Source: Pseudomonas aeruginosa (GTDB lineage: Bacteria > Pseudomonadota > Gammaproteobacteria > Pseudomonadales > Pseudomonadaceae). Taken from it: 32,000 bases of DNA. Under the pieces are notes generated by a model. The model saw only the letters and a program-made list of their open reading frames with translations, was not told the origin of the DNA and searched no databases. A program made the position numbers and the translations under genes. Position 1 is the first letter of the stretch, and each line of letters starts with the position of its first letter. Where the stretch lies: assembly GCF_001457615.1 (NCBI RefSeq), contig NZ_LN831024.1, positions 1,470,001-1,502,000 on the forward strand, read 5' to 3'. Below, in pieces: positions 2,084 to 16,482 of the stretch.

Positions 2084-3004
2084 TCAGCCCTTGGCGGCGC
2101 TGACCCCTTCGAGGGTGGCGAAGGAGGTGTCCTTGGCGGTGAGCAGGAAGTCGCGCATGAATGGCGCATCGAACATGTCCGTGCGGATGGCGGCGAAGAG
2201 CGTGCAGTACAGGCCCTTTTCACCGAGGCGCCGGGCCGTCACGTAGCCGCGCGAGCTGTACTCGTGCAGGGCCCAGTTCGGCAGGCAGCAGACGCCGCGA
2301 CCGGAGGCCACCAGCTGCATCATCATCACGGTCAGCTCGGCTATGCGCACCTGCGCCGGCTCCACGTCGGCGGGGTCGAGGAAGCGGGTGAAGACGTCGA
2401 GACGATCGCGTTCCACCGGATAGGTGATCAGGGTTTCCCGCTCCAGGTCCTCCGGGACGACATACGGTCGACCAGCCAGGGCATGCTGGTTGGCCACCGC
2501 CAGCAGCGCTTCGTAGGTGAACAGTGGCACGTAGGTGATGCCGGGCAACTCGATCGGGTCGGCGGTCACCACCAGGTCGAGGTCGCCGCGGGCCAGGGCC
2601 GGCAGCGGCGCGAAGGAGAAGCCCGAGGCCAGGTCCAGTTCGACTTCCGGCCAGGCGTCGCGGAACTGGTCGATGGTCGGCATCAGCCACTGGAAGCAAC
2701 TGTGGCATTCGATGGCCATGTGCAGGCGTCCGGCGGTACCGCCGGCGAGCCGCGCCAGGTCGCGCTCGGCGGTGCGCAGCTGGGGCAGCAGCGAGTCGGC
2801 CAGTTGCAGCAGGCGCAGCCCGGCGCTGGTGAAGCGTACCGGCTTGGTCTTGCGCACGAACAGCTGCATGCCCAGGCGCTCTTCCAGTTCCTTGAACTGG
2901 TGCGACAGCGCCGACTGGGTAAGGTGCAGGCGCTCGGCGGCTTCCACCAGGCTGTCGGCTTCGCGCAGCGCGTGCAGGGTCTTGAGGTGGCGAAGTTCGA
3001 GCAT
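2084..3004 (-). CDS. metR: LysR-type transcriptional activator MetR
   Basis: 306-aa ORF with ATG at 3004. The N-terminal helix-turn-helix region [55 protein letters not shown] is near-colinear with E. coli MetR (MIEVKHLKTLQALR...[28 protein letters not shown]). Confidence 0.9.
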   Translation of the reverse strand: [306 protein letters not shown]

Positions 3005-4767: not shown

Positions 4768-6306
4768 TCAGGCCGCATGCACCCGCGGGCGATGCGGATG
4801 CTCGCTCTGCAGGTACTGGCCGAGGCGCACCTGCTGGCTCGGCGAGAGGAACAGGCCGAGCTTGCTGCGGCGCCAGAGGATGTCCTCGGCGTCCTGGGCC
4901 CACTCGTGCTTGCACAGGTAGTCCACTTCGCGGGCATACAGGCCGCCGCCCAGGTGCTCGCCGAGATCGGCTTCGCCATTGACCCCGTCCAGCAGGCGCC
5001 ACACCCGGGTGCCGTAGGTGCGCGCCCAGCGCAGCGCCAGTTCGCGGTCGAGCCAGGCGTAGCGGTTGGCCAGTTGCTCGGTGAGCGCCTCGACGCTCTG
5101 CATCTGCTCGCCGCCCGGCAGCGGTGCCTTGGCGGTCCAGGCCGGGCCGAGATTGGCGAAGAACGGCTGGAGCTGCGTCAGCGCCGATTCGGCCAGCTTG
5201 CGGTAGGTGGTCAGCTTGCCGCCGAACACCGAGAGCAGCGGCGGCTCGCCGTTGCCGGCGGAGAGCGACAGGGTGTAGTCGCGGGTGATCGCCGAAGGCT
5301 CGTCGGACTCGTCGTCGCACAGCGGACGCACGCCGGCGAAGCTGTGCAGGATGTCGGCGGCCGCGAGTTGCTGCTTGAAATGGGCGTTCACCACTTGCAG
5401 CAGGTAGGCGGTTTCCTCTTCGCTGATCGCCACCTTGGCCGGGTCGCCCTGGTACTCGCGATCGGTGGTGCCGATCATGGTGAAACGGTCCAGATAGGGG
5501 ATGGCGAAGACGATGCGGCGGTCTTCGTTCTGCAGGATGTAGGCGTGCTCGCCTTCGTACAGCTTCGGCACGATGATGTGGCTGCCCTGGATCAGGCGGA
5601 TACCGTAGGGCGACTTCTGTTTCAGGTCGTCCTGGATGAAGCGCGCTACCCAGGGGCCGGCGGCGTTCACCAGGGCGCGGGCGCGGATCGAATACAGGCT
5701 GCCGTCGCTGCGCTCCAGGTGCAGGTGCCAGAGTCCCTTGCTGCGACGGGCGCTGACGCAGCGGGTGCGGGTATGGACGTGGGCGCCGTGCTCGCGAGCG
5801 GAGATCGCGTTGAGCACCACCAGGCGCGCATCGTCCACCGCGCAGTCGGAGTACTCGAAGCCACGGCGGATCTCGGCCTTCAGCGGGCTGCTGCCGGTGA
5901 AGCGCAGGCCGCGCGAGGCGGGCAGCTTCTCGCGCTTGCCGAGGTGATCGTAGAGGAACAGGCCGGCACGGATCATCCAGGCCGGGCGCAGGTGCGGACG
6001 GTGCGGCAGGACGAAGCGCAGCGGCTTGACGATGTGCGGCGCCTTGGCCAGCAGGACCTCGCGCTCGGCCAGGGCTTCGCGGACCAGGCGGAATTCGTAG
6101 TGTTCGAGGTAGCGCAGGCCGCCGTGGATCAGCTTGCTGCTGGCCGAGGAGGTGTGCTGGGCCAGGTCGTGCTGTTCGCAAAGGAACACGGACAGGCCGC
6201 GCCCGGCTGCGTCGGCGGCGATCCCTACACCGTTGATGCCACCGCCGACCACGGCGACATCGTAGACTTCGGCGAGTGGAGCGGAGGGGGTGTGCGCTTG
6301 ACTCAT
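4768..6306 (-). CDS. glpD: Aerobic sn-glycerol-3-phosphate dehydrogenase (FAD)
   Basis: Internal ATG at 6306 of track ORF 4768..6411 gives 512 aa beginning MSQAHTPSAPLAEVYDVAVVGGGINGVGIAADAAGRG, an N-terminal FAD GxGxxG fold. The 35 upstream codons run into the AT-rich operator region and are not coding-like. Confidence 0.95.
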   Translation of the reverse strand: MSQAHTPSAPLAEVYDVAVVGGGINGVGIAADAAGRGLSVFLCEQHDLAQHTSSASSKLIHGGLRYLEHYEFRLVREALAEREVLLAKAPHIVKPLRFVLPHRPHLRPAWMIRAGLFLYDHLGKREKLPASRGLRFTGSSPLKAEIRRGFEYSDCAVDDARLVVLNAISAREHGAHVHTRTRCVSARRSKGLWHLHLERSDGSLYSIRARALVNAAGPWVARFIQDDLKQKSPYGIRLIQGSHIIVPKLYEGEHAYILQNEDRRIVFAIPYLDRFTMIGTTDREYQGDPAKVAISEEETAYLLQVVNAHFKQQLAAADILHSFAGVRPLCDDESDEPSAITRDYTLSLSAGNGEPPLLSVFGGKLTTYRKLAESALTQLQPFFANLGPAWTAKAPLPGGEQMQSVEALTEQLANRYAWLDRELALRWARTYGTRVWRLLDGVNGEADLGEHLGGGLYAREVDYLCKHEWAQDAEDILWRRSKLGLFLSPSQQVRLGQYLQSEHPHRPRVHAA

Positions 6307-6338
6307 GTGAAAGGCCCTGAAGTCGAAAGTGAACGTAG

Positions 6339-6359
6339 TTTTGTTCGAATTCGAAAATA
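6339..6359. promoter_or_regulatory. GlpR (DeoR-type) operator candidate in the glpD promoter
   Basis: TTTTGTTCGAATTCGAAAATA is a near-perfect palindrome centred on GAATTC. It resembles the enteric glp operator half-site ATGTTCGWT / AWCGAACAT and lies 33-53 nt upstream of the glpD ATG. A second related motif, TTTTCAATTTCGAA, is at about 6405-6418. Confidence 0.65.
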
Positions 6360-6548
6360 GCTTAGTCGATTGCGCAGTTATTGACCAGCCCGATTCACCA
6401 GGCTTTTTCAATTTCGAAGGGGTGCCCGGGCGCTACCGGTTTGCCCGTCCGCGCGGGAACCGCCCCTCTTCCGCATGCGGGAAAGCGGCCGCCGAGGGTC
6501 GTGGCGCATGGGCAGGGGTCGGCAGGTGGCTTTTCTGAAACGAACATT

Positions 6549-6570
6549 CACGGCGCCGAACGGCGCCGTG
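6549..6570 (-). terminator. Stem-loop terminator candidate downstream of glpR
   Basis: CACGGCGCC-GAAC-GGCGCCGTG has a 9-bp perfect stem. On the minus strand it is followed by AATGTTCGTTTCAG. It lies 15 nt after the glpR stop. Confidence 0.5.
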
Positions 6571-6584
6571 GCAGGGGAAATGCC

Positions 6585-7340
6585 TCAGACCAGGTCCAGG
6601 TGAACCTTGTGCTGTGCCATCAGGCGGGCGATGGCGGCGGGCGGCGGGCTGTCGCTGATGACCCGGTTGACCAGCGAGATCGGTCCCAGGCGGACCACCG
6701 CGTTGCGCCCGAACTTGCTCGAGTCGGCGGCCAGGAACACTTGCCGCGCGTTGTCGATGATCGCCTGGGATACGCGCACTTCCTGGTAGTCGAAGTCGAG
6801 CAGGCTGCCATCCTCGTCGATGCCGCTGATGCCGACCAGGGCGAAGTCGACGCGGAACTGCTGGATGAAATCCACCGCGGCCTGGCCGACGATGCCGCCG
6901 TCGCTGCGTACGGTGCCGCCGGCGACCAGCACTTCGAAGTCTTCCTTGGCGCTGAGGGTGGCGGCCACGTGCAGGTTGTTGGTGATGATCTTCAGATTGC
7001 GGTGGTTGAGCAGGGCGCGGGCGATGGCCTCGGTGGTGGTGCCGATGTTGATGAACAGCGAGGCGTTGTCCGGCACCAGGCTGGCCACGGCTTCGGCGAT
7101 GCGCTGCTTCTCGTCACGCATCTGGTCGGCGCGCATGGTGTAGGCGGTGTTCTCGATGCTCGAATCGTAGGCCGCACCGCCGTGGTAGCGGCGCAGCAGT
7201 CCCTGTTCGGCGAGCTGGTTGATGTCGCGGCGGATGGTCTGCGGGGTGACCGCGAACATCTGCGCCATCTCCTCGATGCTCAGGTAACCGCGCTCGCGGA
7301 CCTCCTCGATGATGCTTTGCTGTCGGGGGGGCAGGTTCAT
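6585..7340 (-). CDS. glpR: DeoR-family glycerol-3-phosphate regulon repressor
   Basis: Internal ATG at 7340 of track ORF 6585..7466 gives 251 aa beginning [56 protein letters not shown], a DeoR helix-turn-helix followed by a sugar-phosphate-binding C-terminal domain. It sits between glpD and glpK. Confidence 0.93.
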
Positions 7341-10010: not shown

Positions 10011-10206
10011 ATATTCACAAAGGAATGCTGTCAAAGCGCGAAGATGAACGTTTGTCCGAAAAACGACCCTCCGGTTTCGTTTTCGCGGCCAATCGAATAT
10101 CGCTACCGAGGCACGCGGGCCGCGGCATCGGCGCCCGTGCAGCAGGGGCGGCGATGGCTTAAGGTAGGCGCCGGTTTTCAGCCAACGTTCTTCTCCGGGA
10201 GTGACC

Positions 10207-10677
10207 ATGACCCCTGCCATCGACCTGCTGAAAAAGGCCCGCGCCGCGCACAAGGTGCTCAGCTACAGCCACGACCCCAAGGCACCTTCCTATGGCCTGG
10301 AGGCCGCGGAAAAGCTCGGCCTGGACCCGCAGCGGGTGTTCAAGACGCTGCTCGCCGCCACGGAGAAGGGCGAGTTGCTGGTGGCGGTGGTGCCGGTGAT
10401 CGGCAGTCTCGACCTGAAGGCCCTGGCCCATGCGGCGGGGGCGAAGAAGGCCGACATGGCCGATCCGCAGGCGGCGCAGCGGGCTACCGGCTACCTGGTG
10501 GGCGGGATCAGCCCGCTGGGGCAGAAGAAGCGCCTGCGTACCTTCATCGATGAAAGCGCGCGGCAGTACCCGAGCATCCATGTCAGCGCAGGACGGCGCG
10601 GGCTGGAAGTGGAGCTGGCGGCCGAGGTGCTGGCCCAGCTGACCCAGGGTTCGTTCGCCGCCATCGGCCGTGAATGA
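10207..10677 (+). CDS. ybaK: Cys-tRNA(Pro)/Cys-tRNA(Cys) deacylase, YbaK family
   Basis: The ATG at 10207 lies 6 nt after GGAG; the track start at 10201 is a GTG. MTPAIDLLKK...TGYLVGGISPLGQKKRL...HVSAGRRGLEVELA aligns along its full length with E. coli YbaK (MTPAVKLLEK...STGYLVGGISPLGQKKRL...YVSGGKRGLDIELA). Confidence 0.9.
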   Translation: MTPAIDLLKKARAAHKVLSYSHDPKAPSYGLEAAEKLGLDPQRVFKTLLAATEKGELLVAVVPVIGSLDLKALAHAAGAKKADMADPQAAQRATGYLVGGISPLGQKKRLRTFIDESARQYPSIHVSAGRRGLEVELAAEVLAQLTQGSFAAIGRE

Positions 10678-10740
10678 GCCGCTAATCCCGCCGGCCTAGC
10701 GGTCGGCATTCGTCTTACTTTTCAATCTGTCAGGTTTTCC

Positions 10741-12420: not shown

Positions 12421-13206
12421 ATGCAGCTCGAGTTCCACCAGGTCGACGCGTTTTCTTCCCGCCCGTTCAGTGGCAATCCCGCCGTGGTCTATCGCCTCGA
12501 CGCCTGGCTGGCGGACGAGCTGATGCAGATGATCGCGACCGAGCACAACCTCTCCGAGACCGCCTTCGTCGTTCGCGAAGGAGAGGCCTGGCGGATCCGC
12601 TGGTTCACCCCGAGCGTCGAGGTGGCGCTCTGCGGCCACGCCACACTGGCTGCGGCCCACGTACTGTTCGAGGTCTACGACGAGCCGGGCGAGCGCCTGG
12701 AATTCATCTCGCGCTCCGGTGCGCTGCGGGTCAACCGCGAGGACGAGCGGCTGGTCCTGGATTTCCCCGCGCAGTATCCGAGCGAGGTCGGTAGCACCGT
12801 CGAGCTGGAGCAGGCCCTGGGCCTGCCGCCGGTGGACGTGCTGGGCTCCACCGACAAGCTGCTGGTGCTGCTCGAGTCCGAAGAGGCGGTGCGCGCCTGT
12901 CGCCCCGACTTCGCGGCCCTGGCGCGGCTGCCCTGGCGTGGAGTGATCGTCACCGCGCGGGGTCTGCAGAAGGATTTCGTCTCGCGCTTCTTCGCCCCGG
13001 CGATGGGCGTCGACGAAGACCCGGTCACCGGCTCCGCGCATTGCAGCCTGATTCCCTACTGGGCCCAGCGCTTGAACAAACTGTCGCTGACCGCCCAGCA
13101 GTGCTCGGCGCGCGGCGGCGAGCTGTGGTGCCGGTTGGAGGGCGAGCGGGTGAGTATCGCCGGGCATGCGGTGCTGGTGGCGAGCGGAAGGATTCGATTG
13201 AGCTGA
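12421..13206 (+). CDS. PhzF-family isomerase-like protein
   Basis: The ATG at 12421 follows AGGAGG (12409-12414) and is internal to track ORF 12307..13206. 261 aa beginning MQLEFHQVDAFSSRPFSGNPAVVY, with HNLSETAFV, CGHATLAAAHVL and DPVTGSAHCSL, which are typical PhzF/YddE motifs. Confidence 0.88.
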   Translation: MQLEFHQVDAFSSRPFSGNPAVVYRLDAWLADELMQMIATEHNLSETAFVVREGEAWRIRWFTPSVEVALCGHATLAAAHVLFEVYDEPGERLEFISRSGALRVNREDERLVLDFPAQYPSEVGSTVELEQALGLPPVDVLGSTDKLLVLLESEEAVRACRPDFAALARLPWRGVIVTARGLQKDFVSRFFAPAMGVDEDPVTGSAHCSLIPYWAQRLNKLSLTAQQCSARGGELWCRLEGERVSIAGHAVLVASGRIRLS

Positions 13207-13271
13207 GGGCCGCTTCAGGAGGGGGGATGACCTCGTGCATGCCAGACCTCCACATACCGAAGCCCTGATCC

Positions 13272-13353
13272 GTAGGGTGAATAACCGCTTGCGGTTATCC
13301 GCCGCTTATCCGGGAGTATCGGCGGATACCGCCTGTGGCGGTATTCGCCCTAC
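13272..13353. repeat. REPIN-like doublet: two inverted REP hairpins separated by a spacer
   Basis: GTAGGGTGAATAACCGCTTGCGGTTATCCGCCG - 15 nt - CGGCGGATACCGCCTGTGGCGGTATTCGCCCTAC. Its reverse complement matches the doublets at 15471-15551 and 15700-15780, so this copy is in the opposite orientation. Confidence 0.85.
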
Positions 13354-13588
13354 AGGCCCTGGAAACACCGGACAGCTCCCCCGGACATTTCCGCAGGCTC
13401 TCTCAGAAGCCCGGGAATTGGATAAAAACCCAGTAGGAGGATGATGGAGGGGCCGGCAAATCCATCCCGCAGGGACAGGACCGAACGGCACTGCCCTCTA
13501 TTTTCTGAGGGCAAAAAAGACGCGGGCCGCAGGTGCGGGAACACCTACGACCCGCTAACCACAAACCAGCTTATAAAGGAGCTGACCC

Positions 13589-13903
13589 ATGGCTAAGCCG
13601 AATGATACGTCCAACCCCGAGGTAACAGAATCGTCCCCCCGCTTCGTCCCGCTGCTACCCACCTCCCAGGCCGACATGTGTCCGCGTAGCGCCACCCTGT
13701 ACGTGGACACCCATGCACTCCCCACGCACTTGTTCGACAACGCGAAAGTGCGCTTGAGGTCGGCGATCAACATCCTGGCCATGACCCGTTTGCTCGATGA
13801 GAAAGAAGAGCCCGGCGGCACCCTGGCCTACATCAACGGTGCGTTGCTGTCGCTGCTCAGCGATGCCTTGTCCGAAATCGAGGCGGGCCACCCGAGCCTG
13901 TAG
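13589..13903 (+). CDS. Hypothetical 104-aa cytoplasmic protein directly upstream of the CRISPR leader
   Basis: Strong SD (AAAGGAG) lies 7 nt before the ATG at 13589. G/C at third codon positions is about 80 percent by hand count, which is host-like. It is followed by a stem-loop. The N-terminal third looks disordered (Pro/Ser/Thr-rich) and the C-terminal two thirds look helical. No motif that I can assign to a family. Confidence 0.7.
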   Translation: MAKPNDTSNPEVTESSPRFVPLLPTSQADMCPRSATLYVDTHALPTHLFDNAKVRLRSAINILAMTRLLDEKEEPGGTLAYINGALLSLLSDALSEIEAGHPSL

Positions 13904-13922
13904 CGCCGCTCCCTGGCGCGAC

Positions 13923-13947
13923 GCCCCCGGCCTGGCCGGGGGCTTTG
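13923..13947 (+). terminator. Stem-loop terminator candidate after the 104-aa ORF
   Basis: GCCCCCGGC-CTG-GCCGGGGGC has a 9-bp perfect GC stem followed by TTTG. The U-tract is short, hence only moderate confidence. Confidence 0.55.
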
Positions 13948-14172
13948 CGGCATCGCCATCACAAGACCTTTCGCGCCCGAACGGCACGCTTGATCGCCGT
14001 CCCGGTCCTCGCGAAACGGCCGCCAATTGCCCGAAGCTTCCGACCCTTTTTTCGGACGATTTCTTACGCCCTTATAAATCAGCAAGTTACGAGACCTCGA
14101 AAAAAGAGGGTTTCTGGCGGGAAAAACTCGGTATTTCTTTTTCCTTCAAATGGTTATAGGTTTTCGGGGCTA
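13948..14172 (+). promoter_or_regulatory. CRISPR leader
   Basis: The last ~130 bp directly 5' of repeat 1 (about 14040-14172) are conspicuously AT-richer than the surrounding DNA. Candidate sigma70 promoter: TTCGGA (14051-14056), 16 nt, TATAAA (14073-14078). IHF-consensus-like AATCAGCAAGTTA (14077-14089) matches WATCARNNNNTTR. Leader placement agrees with repeat orientation and with the degenerate repeat at the far end. Confidence 0.75.
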
Positions 14173-15028
14173 GTTCACTGCCGTATAGGCAGCTAAGAAA
14201 GCTAGTTCGTCAGCAAGAAGAGCGGCCCGCTAGTTCACTGCCGTATAGGCAGCTAAGAAATTGCTGGCGCCGCCGGTGAGCTTCGCGTACTCGTTCACTG
14301 CCGTATAGGCAGCTAAGAAAAAATAAAGAGTGCCTTTCTTACTGCTGATCAAGTTCACTGCCGTATAGGCAGCTAAGAAATGGTCGTCTCGCAATCCGCC
14401 TCGGCCGCTGGCGTTCACTGCCGTATAGGCAGCTAAGAAACGGTAGAGACGTCGGTGAGCGCTGCGATCTGCGTTCACTGCCGTATAGGCAGCTAAGAAA
14501 GCAATCGATCAGGCTATGACCGCCGAAGCCTAGTTCACTGCCGTATAGGCAGCTAAGAAATCGACGTTGCCGACCCGCGGCCGCGCCCGGTTGTTCACTG
14601 CCGTATAGGCAGCTAAGAAATCGGCCAAGGCTCCGGCATCGAGCACGATGCCGTTCACTGCCGTATAGGCAGCTAAGAAATTGAGGAACAGGCGCGCTAC
14701 GTCCGCCGCGAAGTTCACTGCCGTATAGGCAGCTAAGAAATTGATGATGCCGTCCTGCTGTTTGCCGGCGATGTTCACTGCCGTATAGGCAGCTAAGAAA
14801 TACGGGCAGTCACGGCGAAAGGCACTCAGCGAGTTCACTGCCGTATAGGCAGCTAAGAAATCGCGCAATGATTTCAGCCGCGGAGCGCATAGGTTCACTG
14901 CCGTATAGGCAGCTAAGAAAATAGATAACACGTGTGACCGCGACCACTACCGGTTCACTGCCGTATAGGCAGCTAAGAAACTCAAGAAAGAGCAGAACGG
15001 CCAGCTTGCGCCGTTCATTGCCGTGTAG
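14173..15028 (+). CRISPR. Type I-F CRISPR array: 14 identical 28-bp repeats, 14 unique 32-bp spacers, plus a truncated 15th repeat
   Basis: GTTCACTGCCGTATAGGCAGCTAAGAAA starts at 14173 and recurs every 60 bp through 14953 with no repeat SNPs. It carries the Cas6f/Csy4 hairpin CTGCC-GTATA-GGCAG and the CTAAGAAA 5'-handle sequence. The terminal repeat at 15013-15028, GTTCATTGCCGTGTAG, has 2 mismatches and ends inside the hairpin loop. This is the canonical P. aeruginosa (Yersinia-subtype) I-F repeat. Confidence 0.99.
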
Positions 15029-15430
15029 TCCCGTAGGGCGAATGCCGCCATAGGCGGTATCCGCCCTACGGATCGGGTTCCTGGCATCCACGAAGTGAGG
15101 CTTGCCCTCCAAGTGGTGGGGCGGCAAACCCGCCCCGTCAGGAGGCCGAGCGGAATCGTTGCGGAGGGGGACGAGTGGCAGGATGCCGCGAGAGCCGCCT
15201 CGGTCCACGAAGGACCGTGGCGGCGTGCCGCCGGGAGCAACGATGCAGCGAGGGCACCCCAGCCGAGAAGCGGCTGGGGCCGGATGCCGGGGCGAGTCTT
15301 TTGGTTCCTTTTGGACGCTTGCAAAAGGAACTCGCCTGGGAAGGCGAAACAAGAGGCCAAGGCAGGCACAGAAAATAGCTTGACCACCAAACATGACGCC
15401 CGCTCAAGCGCTAAGCAACAGCGCCCCCCT

Positions 15431-15451
15431 CACTGCCGTGTAGCTAAGAAA
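15431..15451 (+). repeat. Partial CRISPR repeat fragment between composite units 1 and 2
   Basis: CACTGCCGTGTAG-CTAAGAAA is repeat positions 4-16 fused to positions 21-28. The GCAG of the 3' stem arm is missing, so the Cas6f hairpin cannot form. Confidence 0.85.
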
Positions 15452-15917
15452 TCGCGAGCGATATAGTCCCGTAGGGCGAATACCGCCATAGGCGGTATCC
15501 GCCGATGCACTGGAGAGCCGGCGGATAACCGCAAGCGGTCATTCGCCCTACGGATCGGGCTCCTGGCATGCCCTCCGAGTGGCAGGGCGAGTCTTTTGGA
15601 CGCTTGCAGAAGGAGCTCGCCTGGAAAGGCGAAACAAGAGGCCAAGGCAAGCACGACAAGCAGCTTGAGCAGCAAACATGAAGCCCGCTCGAACGTCCCG
15701 TAGGGCGAATACCGCCACAGGCGGTATCCGCCGATGCCCCGGACAGCCGGCGGATAACCGCAAGCGGTTATTCGCCCTACGGATCGGGCTCCTGGCTTGC
15801 CCTCCGAGTGGTGGGCGAGTCTTTTGGACGCTTGCAGAAGGAACTCGCCTGGAAAGGCGAAACAAGAGGCCAAGGCAAGCACGACGCCCGCTCAAGCGCT
15901 AAGCAACAGCTTCCCCC

Positions 15918-15937
15918 CTTAGTGCCGTGCAGGCAGC
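15918..15937 (+). repeat. Degenerate CRISPR-repeat-like fragment at the end of composite unit 3
   Basis: CTTAGTGCCGTGCAGGCAGC compares with GTTCACTGCCGTATAGGCAGC. The 3' arm GGCAGC is retained, the CTAAGAAA tail is lost, and there are several substitutions and one deletion. Confidence 0.6.
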
Positions 15938-16059
15938 GACGGGAGCTGGGGGCCAGTCACGCATTCACGGCCCGCCAGGCAGTCCCCGTGCACCCGGTGC
16001 CGAAACGCCACCTTCGTGCCCTGCGTCATGGCCAATGCTCCACGGCAAGTCGCTACCCC

Positions 16060-16482
16060 TCAGTACCCATCCGCCACCGGTGCCAGGTAGAGCCCGCCCG
16101 CACCGAGGGTAATGCGTAGGTTGCGGATCTCTCCGGCGCGCAGGGTCAGGGTCTGTCCGGCGAGGATGGTCATGCCGTTCCGGCAGGCGTCGCCAGGACC
16201 GTTCGGCGCAAGACGCACGTCCACCGCGCCGGGTTGCAGGTTCAGGGCCAGGCTGGCGCCCGGTTGCAGGTTGCCGACCAGTTCGTCGTGGACGTACAGG
16301 CCGACATCGCAGGCAGTGCCGGACTCGACCCGCTCGCGGGAAACGTTCAGCACCGCATAGCCGATCGGCGCCGGGTCGGGTTGCGCCCAGCCGCCGCTGG
16401 CCGGTTGCGGGTCCGCGGCGAGCGCCGGGAGGGCGCAGGCCAGGGCAGCGGTATGGAGCAGCGGGCGAAGGATGGGGAACAT
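16060..16482 (-). CDS. Hypothetical exported protein (about 140 aa, Sec signal peptide)
   Basis: The ATG at 16482 is internal to track ORF 16060..16557. MFPILRPLLHTAALACALPALAADPQP is a signal peptide with an ALA-AD cleavage site. The mature part is Gly/Leu/Asn-rich and looks beta-rich. It lies downstream of the cytochrome b561 gene on the same strand. Confidence 0.7.
   Translation of the reverse strand: MFPILRPLLHTAALACALPALAADPQPASGGWAQPDPAPIGYAVLNVSRERVESGTACDVGLYVHDELVGNLQPGASLALNLQPGAVDVRLAPNGPGDACRNGMTILAGQTLTLRAGEIRNLRITLGAGGLYLAPVADGY

Follow-up and report, generated by a model that had tools for sequence, protein, structure and literature searches.

In Pseudomonas aeruginosa, the name CRISPR3 (CR3) is given to an isolated or orphaned array located between ybaK and mmsR (PMC13142298). 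According to the preprint that uses this definition (Malaluan & Dy, bioRxiv 2026, PMC13142298), 1,198 complete genomes contain 281 'isolated' I-F arrays, with cas genes elsewhere in the genome, versus 148 'orphaned' ones; approximately 86% of the cas-distant I-F arrays lie between ybaK and mmsR, and the leaders of the surveyed arrays resemble that of the cas1-adjacent array. For strain ATCC 10145, the same preprint describes CRISPR3 as an 'isolated' I-F array approximately 1.3 Mb from the cas operon, and reports that the CR3 upstream region drives lacZ, that a plasmid targeted by CR3 yielded 68% fewer transformants, and that CR3 expands during priming, i.e. undergoes primed adaptation in trans (PMC13142298). 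Earlier work had recorded a third, non-cas-associated I-F array in ST-1146 isolates in 2014 (PMC4198096) and, in 2020, a CRISPR3 at approximately 1.49 Mb in PcyII-10 together with a cas-less strain, PcyII-29, in which CRISPR3 is the sole array (PMC7344871). Essoh et al. 2013 (PMC3634792) was considered as a still earlier description and rejected: its 'CRISPR3' PCR primers had no match, at up to three mismatches, in the window (the whole 32-kb stretch of P. aeruginosa DNA analyzed here), and its CRISPR2 reverse primer matched the leader described below at 14081-14100.

The array in the window is the known CRISPR3, a cas-distant type I-F array that has already been described: it lies between ybaK and an mmsR-like gene and carries a CR2-like leader, 'CR2' being the cas1-adjacent array of PA14-type loci. 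The original prediction had supposed that the array was probably in surveys already, which the 2014 (PMC4198096), 2020 (PMC7344871) and 2026 (PMC13142298) papers confirm, while its view that little has been described of the array's origin, acquisition competence and regulation is outdated, the 2026 preprint having tested promoter activity, interference and primed adaptation of this array type (PMC13142298). When Cas1, Cas2-3 and Csy1-4 from related P. aeruginosa loci were used as tblastn queries against all six frames of the 32 kb, the best E value was 0.2, and the adjacent cas1, cas2-3, csy1-4 operon of the canonical locus is absent from the 32-kb window. Long ORFs with high GC3 tile the window, and all of them are housekeeping genes. 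In addition to ybaK and the mmsR-like gene, which is followed by mmsA/mmsB-like aldehyde and 3-hydroxyisobutyrate dehydrogenases, they comprise a thiolase fragment, a MetR-like regulator, an alpha/beta hydrolase, glpD, glpR, glpK and glpF, an FGGY kinase, a PhzF-like protein, cytochrome b561, a TetR (nalD-like) regulator, an MFS transporter, an acyl-CoA synthetase, a LysR regulator, TatD, a LacI (fruR-like) regulator and a PTS fusion protein (fruB-like). The tblastn search and this ORF content thus agree with the earlier statement that the window holds no cas genes, and the ybaK-mmsR position agrees with the statement that the locus differs from the canonical cas-flanking arrays. The missing cas neighbors place the array in the cas-distant class and are no argument against its being a CRISPR array. 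The features of the region are listed in Table 1.

Table 1. Features of the ybaK-mmsR region, with positions counted along the window
Feature	Position	Strand	Remarks
ybaK ORF	10201-10677		
Full-length REP-like palindromic element, left junction	13269..13356		Overlap of two homologies
Candidate SymR-like cis-antisense RNA	13519..13594	-	Covers SD and ATG of the 104-aa ORF
104-aa ORF	13589..13903	+	Directly upstream of the leader and travels with it; GC3 0.82
Leader, non-coding	13904..14172	+	269 nt; A+T-richer in the last ~130 nt
CRISPR array	14173..15012	+	14 identical 28-nt I-F repeats interleaved with 14 unique 32-nt spacers
Truncated, degenerate terminal (15th) repeat GTTCATTGCCGTGTAG	15013..15028	+	16 nt; G-type loop base
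Short REP-like element, right junction	15029..15070		Array-free alignment resumes at 15031
Relic repeat fragment CCTCACTGCCGTGTAG-CTAAGAAA	15428..15451	+	Internal 4-nt deletion
Two ~230-bp tandem units	15466..15916		Full REP-like element at the start of each
Second relic repeat-like sequence CCTTAGTGCCGTGCAGGCAGCGACGGGA	15917..15944	+	19/28 matches
AraC (mmsR-like) regulator ORF	19964-20896		

Exact matching located 14 exact copies of the repeat GTTCACTGCCGTATAGGCAGCTAAGAAA with a 60-nt period, the first starting at 14173 and the last at 14953, so that the last intact repeat ends at 14980; all 14 spacers are distinct and all are 32 nt long, giving the constant length and regular period of a CRISPR array. 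Rfam CRISPR-DR4 (RF01317) matched 14 times, with 46.5 bits per repeat against a gathering threshold of 35, and the 28-nt repeat is of the I-F (Ypest/CRISPR-DR4) type and identical to one quoted for P. aeruginosa I-F arrays (PMC4198096). Exact matching and RF01317 thereby reproduce the 14 identical I-F repeats and 14 different 32-nt spacers of the original prediction, from which a 15th repeat was missing: GTTCATTGCCGTGTAG breaks off at 16 nt and is fused to a REP-like palindromic element. The predicted fold of the intact repeat, .....(((((.....)))))........ (-8.6 kcal/mol), has a 5-bp stem and a 5-nt GUAUA loop, and the 8-nt CUAAGAAA tail that follows the predicted hairpin would give it the form of a Cas6f substrate. 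Fold prediction gave no hairpin for the half-repeat 3' of spacer 14, and for this reason the spacer 14 transcript is probably not matured into a crRNA.

A leader, also part of the original prediction, is present, although the start proposed for it at 13948 falls inside the element, which begins at 13904, after the ORF stop at 13903. GC content drops from approximately 0.65 to 0.48-0.50 in the ~130 nt directly preceding the first repeat, and a candidate IHF site, AATCAGCAAGTTA at 14077-14089, fits the consensus WATCARNNNNTTR; a consensus scan of 13200-16100, leader included, returned no sigma-70 promoter. Cas loci for comparison were retrieved via a look-up of the 104-aa ORF (retrieved loci are designated L008, L009 and so on). 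In a repeat scan of GTDB representative genomes, matches came from P. piscis, P. thermotolerans, Halomonas and MAGs, and none was a P. aeruginosa I-F locus. An identical 104-aa protein was encoded at ybaK-mmsR beside CRISPR3 arrays (L008, L012, L014, L015), between an oprD-family porin gene and the array 5' of cas1, cas2-3 and csy1-4 (L011, L013, L016), and at oprD-pvdL alleles with a Bro-N gene in place of array and cas (L009, L010, L017). One chromosome, CP145614.1, carries both CR3 (L012, 1.49 Mb) and a complete cas1/cas2-3/csy1-4 operon (L013, 2.82 Mb). The comparison with cas-operon leaders that had been envisaged at the outset was carried out with these related-strain loci: the leader differs at 2 of 269 positions from the cas1-adjacent array leaders of L013 and L016, and is homologous to them; it lies at the spacer-addition end of the array. 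Over the 904 bp from 13269 to 14172, identity to the cas1-adjacent copies is 98.5-99.1%. These values agree with the '98% over 900 bp' and 'three mismatches' given in the preprint (PMC13142298). Judged by these identities, the module (REP element, 104-aa ORF, leader and array) is a copy of the upstream region of the cas1-adjacent array. Other genomes carry a third copy of the module, 82% identical, between two BCCT transporter genes, where it is followed by a three-repeat mini-array.

The spacers bear the marks of the I-F machinery. Matches to P. aeruginosa phages or IncP-type plasmids were found for 11 of the 14; the phages are Y8, F_TK1718sp/PAK, LESphi3-like, Dobby/phiCTX, MPK9, JD024-type and two Pf-like inoviruses, and the plasmid protospacers lie in the trbJ/trbI/backbone regions of IncP-type plasmids. 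The I-F PAM is 5'-CC on the spacer-sense strand, equivalent to 3'-GG on the target strand, and 5'-CC was present at 9 of the 11 protospacers (chance approximately 2e-7 if the CC frequency is 12%). That the spacers were made by I-F machinery is supported by these targets and this bias. Related arrays have spacers 5-14 in common, in unchanged order, and diverge at the leader end, where the lineage-private spacers sit, and eight spacers between 10 and 11 that relatives have kept were lost from the window array. The same 14/14-spacer array occurs in two other assemblies, GCA_002216355.1 and one ENA metagenome contig, these being drafts or a short metagenome contig. Both of the newest spacers have a 100% match in phage F_TK1718sp/PAK, where their CC-flanked protospacers lie 1.07 kb from each other on opposite strands. 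The older spacer 5 hits this phage at 90% identity, 4-5 kb from these sites, with three mismatches and a flank other than CC; spacers of the relatives map into the same 5-7 kb phage stretch. Such clustering on one phage is the pattern that would be expected from primed adaptation. Apart from the two identical copies, the two newest spacers are absent from all related arrays retrieved, and because they are perfect, PAM-flanked and confined to identical copies among these arrays, their acquisition appears to be very recent. Taken from the spacer sequences, the picture fits an array that has been active in nature, and the CC PAM bias, the leader-end turnover and the fresh clustered spacers are likewise consistent with the earlier expectation of a probably active array.

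The repeats themselves carry a further record. At loop position 13, every intact CRISPR3 repeat carries A, and the truncated oldest repeat, like the cas1-adjacent arrays, has G. New repeats are copied from the first repeat at acquisition, which would mean that all present units were added after the G-to-A change took place here; most simply, then, a G-to-A mutation arose in the first repeat and was copied at each subsequent acquisition. The csy4-adjacent array, which is also A-type, was considered as a source of the A-type repeats and judged unlikely, its orientation being inverted with respect to the cas1-adjacent leader.

We consider it likely that CRISPR3 works here as an ordinary I-F array with proteins supplied in trans, and we infer that this host still carries the cas operon. 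Both outcomes named in the original prediction, service in trans and a relic, are kept as readings; the preprint shows the in-trans case for ATCC 10145 (PMC13142298). In the proposed mechanism, a leader promoter would transcribe the array rightwards, Cas6f/Csy4 would cut each repeat at the base of the 5-bp hairpin to release 60-nt crRNAs with the 8-nt CUAAGAAA 5' handle, and the crRNAs would be taken up by the Csy (Cascade) complex, whose genes lie at oprD-pvdL approximately 1.3 Mb away. This complex would guide Cas2-3 to phage and plasmid protospacers flanked by CC, and Cas1-Cas2-3 would insert new spacers at the leader-proximal repeat. That the array is expressed may be taken by analogy from the preprint's reporter data on a near-identical upstream region (PMC13142298). 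Our degree of confidence in function in trans rests on the survey base rate (approximately 65% isolated) and on the very fresh spacers at the leader end, which together make it a better bet than a recently orphaned relic.

The relic reading is the rival that survives best, and we regard it as possible but distinctly less probable: the host lineage would have lost its I-F cas genes, leaving an array that is at most transcribed, yields no mature crRNA and is too young for decay. Such arrays do exist, given that 148 of 429 cas-distant I-F arrays (about one third) lie in cas-less genomes according to the preprint (PMC13142298) and that PcyII-29 has CRISPR3 as its sole array and no cas (PMC7344871); the window contains no evidence of cas, and the cas-less oprD-pvdL alleles, in which the Bro-N gene replaces array and cas (L009, L010, L017), keep the 104-aa ORF and leader. 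Those same alleles, however, show decay, with two leftover repeats matching at only 17-19 of 28 positions, whereas all 14 repeats are identical here. The two newest spacers, as perfect PAM-flanked matches to a sequenced phage, also speak against a relic in pointing to very recent acquisition.

The boundaries of the module suggest how the array came to lie at ybaK-mmsR. On the left, array-free alleles align up to 13303 and homology to the oprD-cas1 locus begins at 13269, with the overlap falling inside the left REP-like element, which, like its other copies, gives a sub-threshold match to Rfam P33. On the right, the junction GTTCATTGCCGTGTAG|TCCCGTAGGGCG, also written GTTCATTGCCGTGTAG|TCCCGTAGGG, is common to 14 of 14 related CRISPR3 arrays retrieved, and the start of the right REP, CCCGTAGGG, resembles CCGTGTAGG of the repeat. 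Among eight array-free alleles, alignment resumes at 15031-15054 in five and at 15246-15278 in three. Because the array-free junction consists of the first ~34 nt of the left REP joined to the sequence after ATCCGCC of the short right element, the left boundary of the module reads as a REP-REP crossover and the right boundary as a break inside a CRISPR repeat, adjoining a REP. The module is accordingly joined to ybaK-mmsR at REP-like elements on its left side and, on its right, at a break within a CRISPR repeat; the junctions fit equally a circle that was cut out of the cas locus and inserted here and a REP-REP deletion that yields the array-free allele. The sharing of one right junction by all 14 CRISPR3 arrays retrieved argues for a single founding event. 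The window module is only 96.4-97.7% identical to a second cluster of CRISPR3 loci, i.e. closer to the cas1-adjacent copies, and therefore module copies have probably exchanged sequence since that founding event. Downstream of the array, the fragment at 15428-15451 occurs in the majority of the examined alleles of the locus, among them six of the eight without an array (it was not seen in L019 and L020), and that at 15917-15944 in all eight array-free alleles. A third unit of the ~230-bp type, interrupted, occupies 15029-15465, and the number of tandem REP units varies between strains.

The module also contains a small cassette. The 104-aa protein had no match in Pfam (E up to 10), NCBIfam (E up to 1) or PADLOC; a profile search among 1.84 billion representatives placed it only in its own small family of 27 clusters, and in its low-confidence AF2 model (pLDDT 63) a disordered N-terminus is followed by two helices. 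On the opposite strand, a permissive scan with Rfam symR returned a match over the full model length at 53 bits (E 1.5e-9), below the gathering threshold of 61. The candidate antisense RNA overlaps the SD and ATG (13589) and ends in a 15-bp terminator stem followed by a T-run; with a folding energy of -47.4 kcal/mol (z = -7.0), the minus strand forms two long hairpins and a U-run, and the sense strand reaches only -29.4. Across paralogous cassettes, in which protein identity is only 50-55%, this stretch of ~85 nt shows ~90% conservation; the antisense stems are kept among paralogues, with changes falling in loops. The Pfam and NCBIfam searches gave no match that would place the 104-aa protein in the SymE (AbrB-fold) or the ptaRNA1-toxin family, and since two of three tests of SymE/SymR membership failed, we use 'SymR-like' as a label only. 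The SymR-like RNA candidate is part of the duplicated module.

As opposed to a one-off duplication, CRISPR3 could represent one insertion of a mobile 'array carrier' made up of REP, SymR-like RNA and 104-aa ORF, which we consider rather unlikely. Were it true, the I-F leader would be the tail of a repeated cassette, never travelling alone in P. aeruginosa, and the cassette could act as a type-I-TA-like 'addiction' or recombination module. Cassette copies at variable loci would then offer homology for moving leader-plus-array units, between strains too, and control of toxicity would explain the survival of ORF and leader after cas loss.

Birth of the array in place, by off-target integration of Cas1-Cas2-3 at a pre-existing repeat-like sequence, would be a neo-CRISPR reading and is disfavored as very improbable. 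Off-target acquisition is cited as one proposed origin of such arrays in the preprint (PMC13142298), and the array-free alleles do carry repeat-like fragments (the 15428-15451 type in 6/8, the 15917-15944 type in 8/8), but these lie 400-900 bp downstream of the array and not at its leader end, and off-target integration cannot account for the ~900 bp upstream of the array (REP, 104-aa ORF, leader), whose identity to the cas1-adjacent region is 98.5-99.1%. A role outside defense, through anti-cas spacers that block I-F re-acquisition or through self-targeting regulation, has a precedent in the E. coli orphan arrays cited in the preprint (PMC13142298) and seems hardly credible here, where 11 of 14 spacers match phages or conjugative plasmids and searches against I-F cas operons, the oprD-pvdL loci and the rest of the window gave only chance words of 11-13 nt.

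As a discovery the array carries little weight, since records of CRISPR3 at ybaK-mmsR go back to at least 2014 and tests of its function in trans date from 2026; it is useful as a clean natural example of a cas-distant array. Such arrays enlarge and exchange a strain's immune memory without moving cas genes, and counts of CRISPR-positive strains that rely on arrays alone are misleading. What the present analysis adds is a concrete, testable route for the copying and loss of arrays, given by the REP and within-repeat junctions and the relic repeats of array-free alleles, together with a loop-base switch that would mark the current repeats as made in place and the clustering of spacers on one phage family.

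Collectively, the array can be set against four known systems. With the cas1-adjacent array ('CR2' of PA14-type loci), it shares the leader, the 104-aa ORF, the REP element and the orientation to the leader; it differs in that the cas1-adjacent repeats have G at loop position 13 (GTGTAGG) and the CR3 repeats A (GTATAGG), that cas1 follows the former and REP units the latter, and that no spacers are common to CR3 and any of the three cas1-adjacent arrays compared. The E. coli orphan arrays, as cited in the preprint (PMC13142298), are likewise of I-F type and lie in a genome region without cas, but their host genomes are cas-less and some of their spacers are directed against I-F cas genes; the window array has no such spacer. 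The CRISPR3 arrays of PcyII-10 and PcyII-29 (PMC7344871) and of ST-1146 (PMC4198096), which those papers catalogue only, have the same 28-nt repeat and are a third array not associated with cas, and the ~1.49 Mb position in PcyII-10 is that of CR3 in CP145614.1 (1.49 Mb); unlike the window array, they have 24, 16 and 18 units, with other spacer content. CR3 of ATCC 10145 and of the surveyed genomes, according to the preprint (PMC13142298), has the same ybaK-mmsR position, I-F repeat, and phage and plasmid targets, a leader near-identical to that of the cas1-adjacent array ('CR2') along with ~900 bp of upstream sequence common to both, and a similar size of 13 spacers, compared with 14 here, the last without an intact downstream repeat. 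Beyond the account in the accessible text of that preprint (PMC13142298), the present locus contributes the REP-REP left junction, the within-repeat right break and the relic repeats in array-free alleles.

Across the upstream part of the CRISPR3 module (13269-14172, comprising a REP-like element, a 104-aa ORF and the leader), the window was 98.5-99.1% identical to the cas1-adjacent copies of other strains (L011, L013 and L016), compared to 96.4-97.7% for a second CRISPR3 cluster (L008, L012 and L014), and one right junction was common to all CRISPR3 loci. That the module lies closer to the cas1-adjacent copies despite this single junction suggests that the two sites have undergone gene conversion or have exchanged sequence repeatedly. 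The entire module was found in a third copy between two BCCT transporter genes in three assemblies (L047-L049; CP029093.1, CP109657.1 and one other), comprising the REP, antisense region, ORF and leader at 82% DNA identity, with 75% protein identity for the ORF. This copy is followed by a three-repeat mini-array of the G type (G at loop position 13), and one solitary inverted repeat and IS110/IS3 insertions lie nearby.

Features of the CRISPR3 region and of the BCCT-flanked module copies
Feature	Position	Strand	Remark
REP-like nested palindromes	13269-13356, 15029-15070, 15466-15553, 15697-15785		Sub-threshold Rfam P33 matches
Candidate SymR-like cis-antisense RNA	13519-13594	minus	Rfam match and fold
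104-aa ORF	13589-13903
G+C-rich hairpin	13923-13943		GCCCCCGG...CCGGGGGC, then TTT; shortly past the ORF stop
Spacers 1, 2 and 5	14201-14232, 14261-14292, 14441-14472		Phage KM389229.1
Spacers 8, 10 and 11	14621-14652, 14741-14772, 14801-14832		IncP-type plasmid matches
Spacer 14 and partial repeat	14981-15028		Repeat present to first 16 nt only
Decayed CRISPR-repeat fragments	15428-15451, 15917-15944		400-900 bp downstream of array
Module features at the BCCT locus	5666-6734, 2491-2518		In L047-L049

The CRISPR3 module is bounded by REP-like palindromes, which also make up the ~230-bp tandem units downstream of it, and the number of these units varies by strain. In the array-free allele, the left REP half is fused to the sequence 3' of the right element. 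Among the eight array-free alleles of the ybaK-mmsR locus (L018-L023, L026 and L027), the decayed repeat fragment of the 15917 type was present in all eight and that of the 15428 type in six. Repeats may have existed at this site before, or independently of, the current array. Strains lacking I-F cas genes retained the 104-aa ORF and leader at oprD-pvdL (L009, L010 and L017, ~10316-10680), followed by two badly decayed repeats (17/28 and 19/28 matching positions), with a Bro-N domain gene occupying the position of the array and cas operon.

The 104-aa ORF was invariably located upstream of the I-F leader, and its Shine-Dalgarno sequence and ATG fall within the span of the SymR-like candidate. 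This candidate matched the full length of the Rfam SymR model with 53 bits (E = 1.5e-9), below the gathering score of 61 bits; its predicted fold (-47.4 kcal/mol, z = -7), two long hairpins followed by a U-run, was confined to the minus strand. The antisense stretch was ~90% conserved across paralogous cassettes, the proteins of which were only 50-55% identical. The hairpin beyond the ORF was not called by the terminator scan; it may be the terminator of the ORF, in which case the array's own transcription unit would begin there.

At the array's distal end, the 16-nt partial repeat cannot form the Cas6f hairpin, so spacer 14 probably never yields a mature crRNA; array finders would give 13 spacers, for which this partial repeat may be the cause. 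Spacers 8, 10 and 11 matched trbJ, trbI and part of the backbone of IncP-type broad-host-range conjugative plasmids (97-100% identity, CC PAM), indicating that the array records plasmid encounters too. The two newest spacers (1 and 2) and the older, imperfectly matching spacer 5 fall within a ~5-kb stretch of one phage genome (KM389229.1), and spacers of related arrays map to the same stretch, a clustering typical of primed adaptation.
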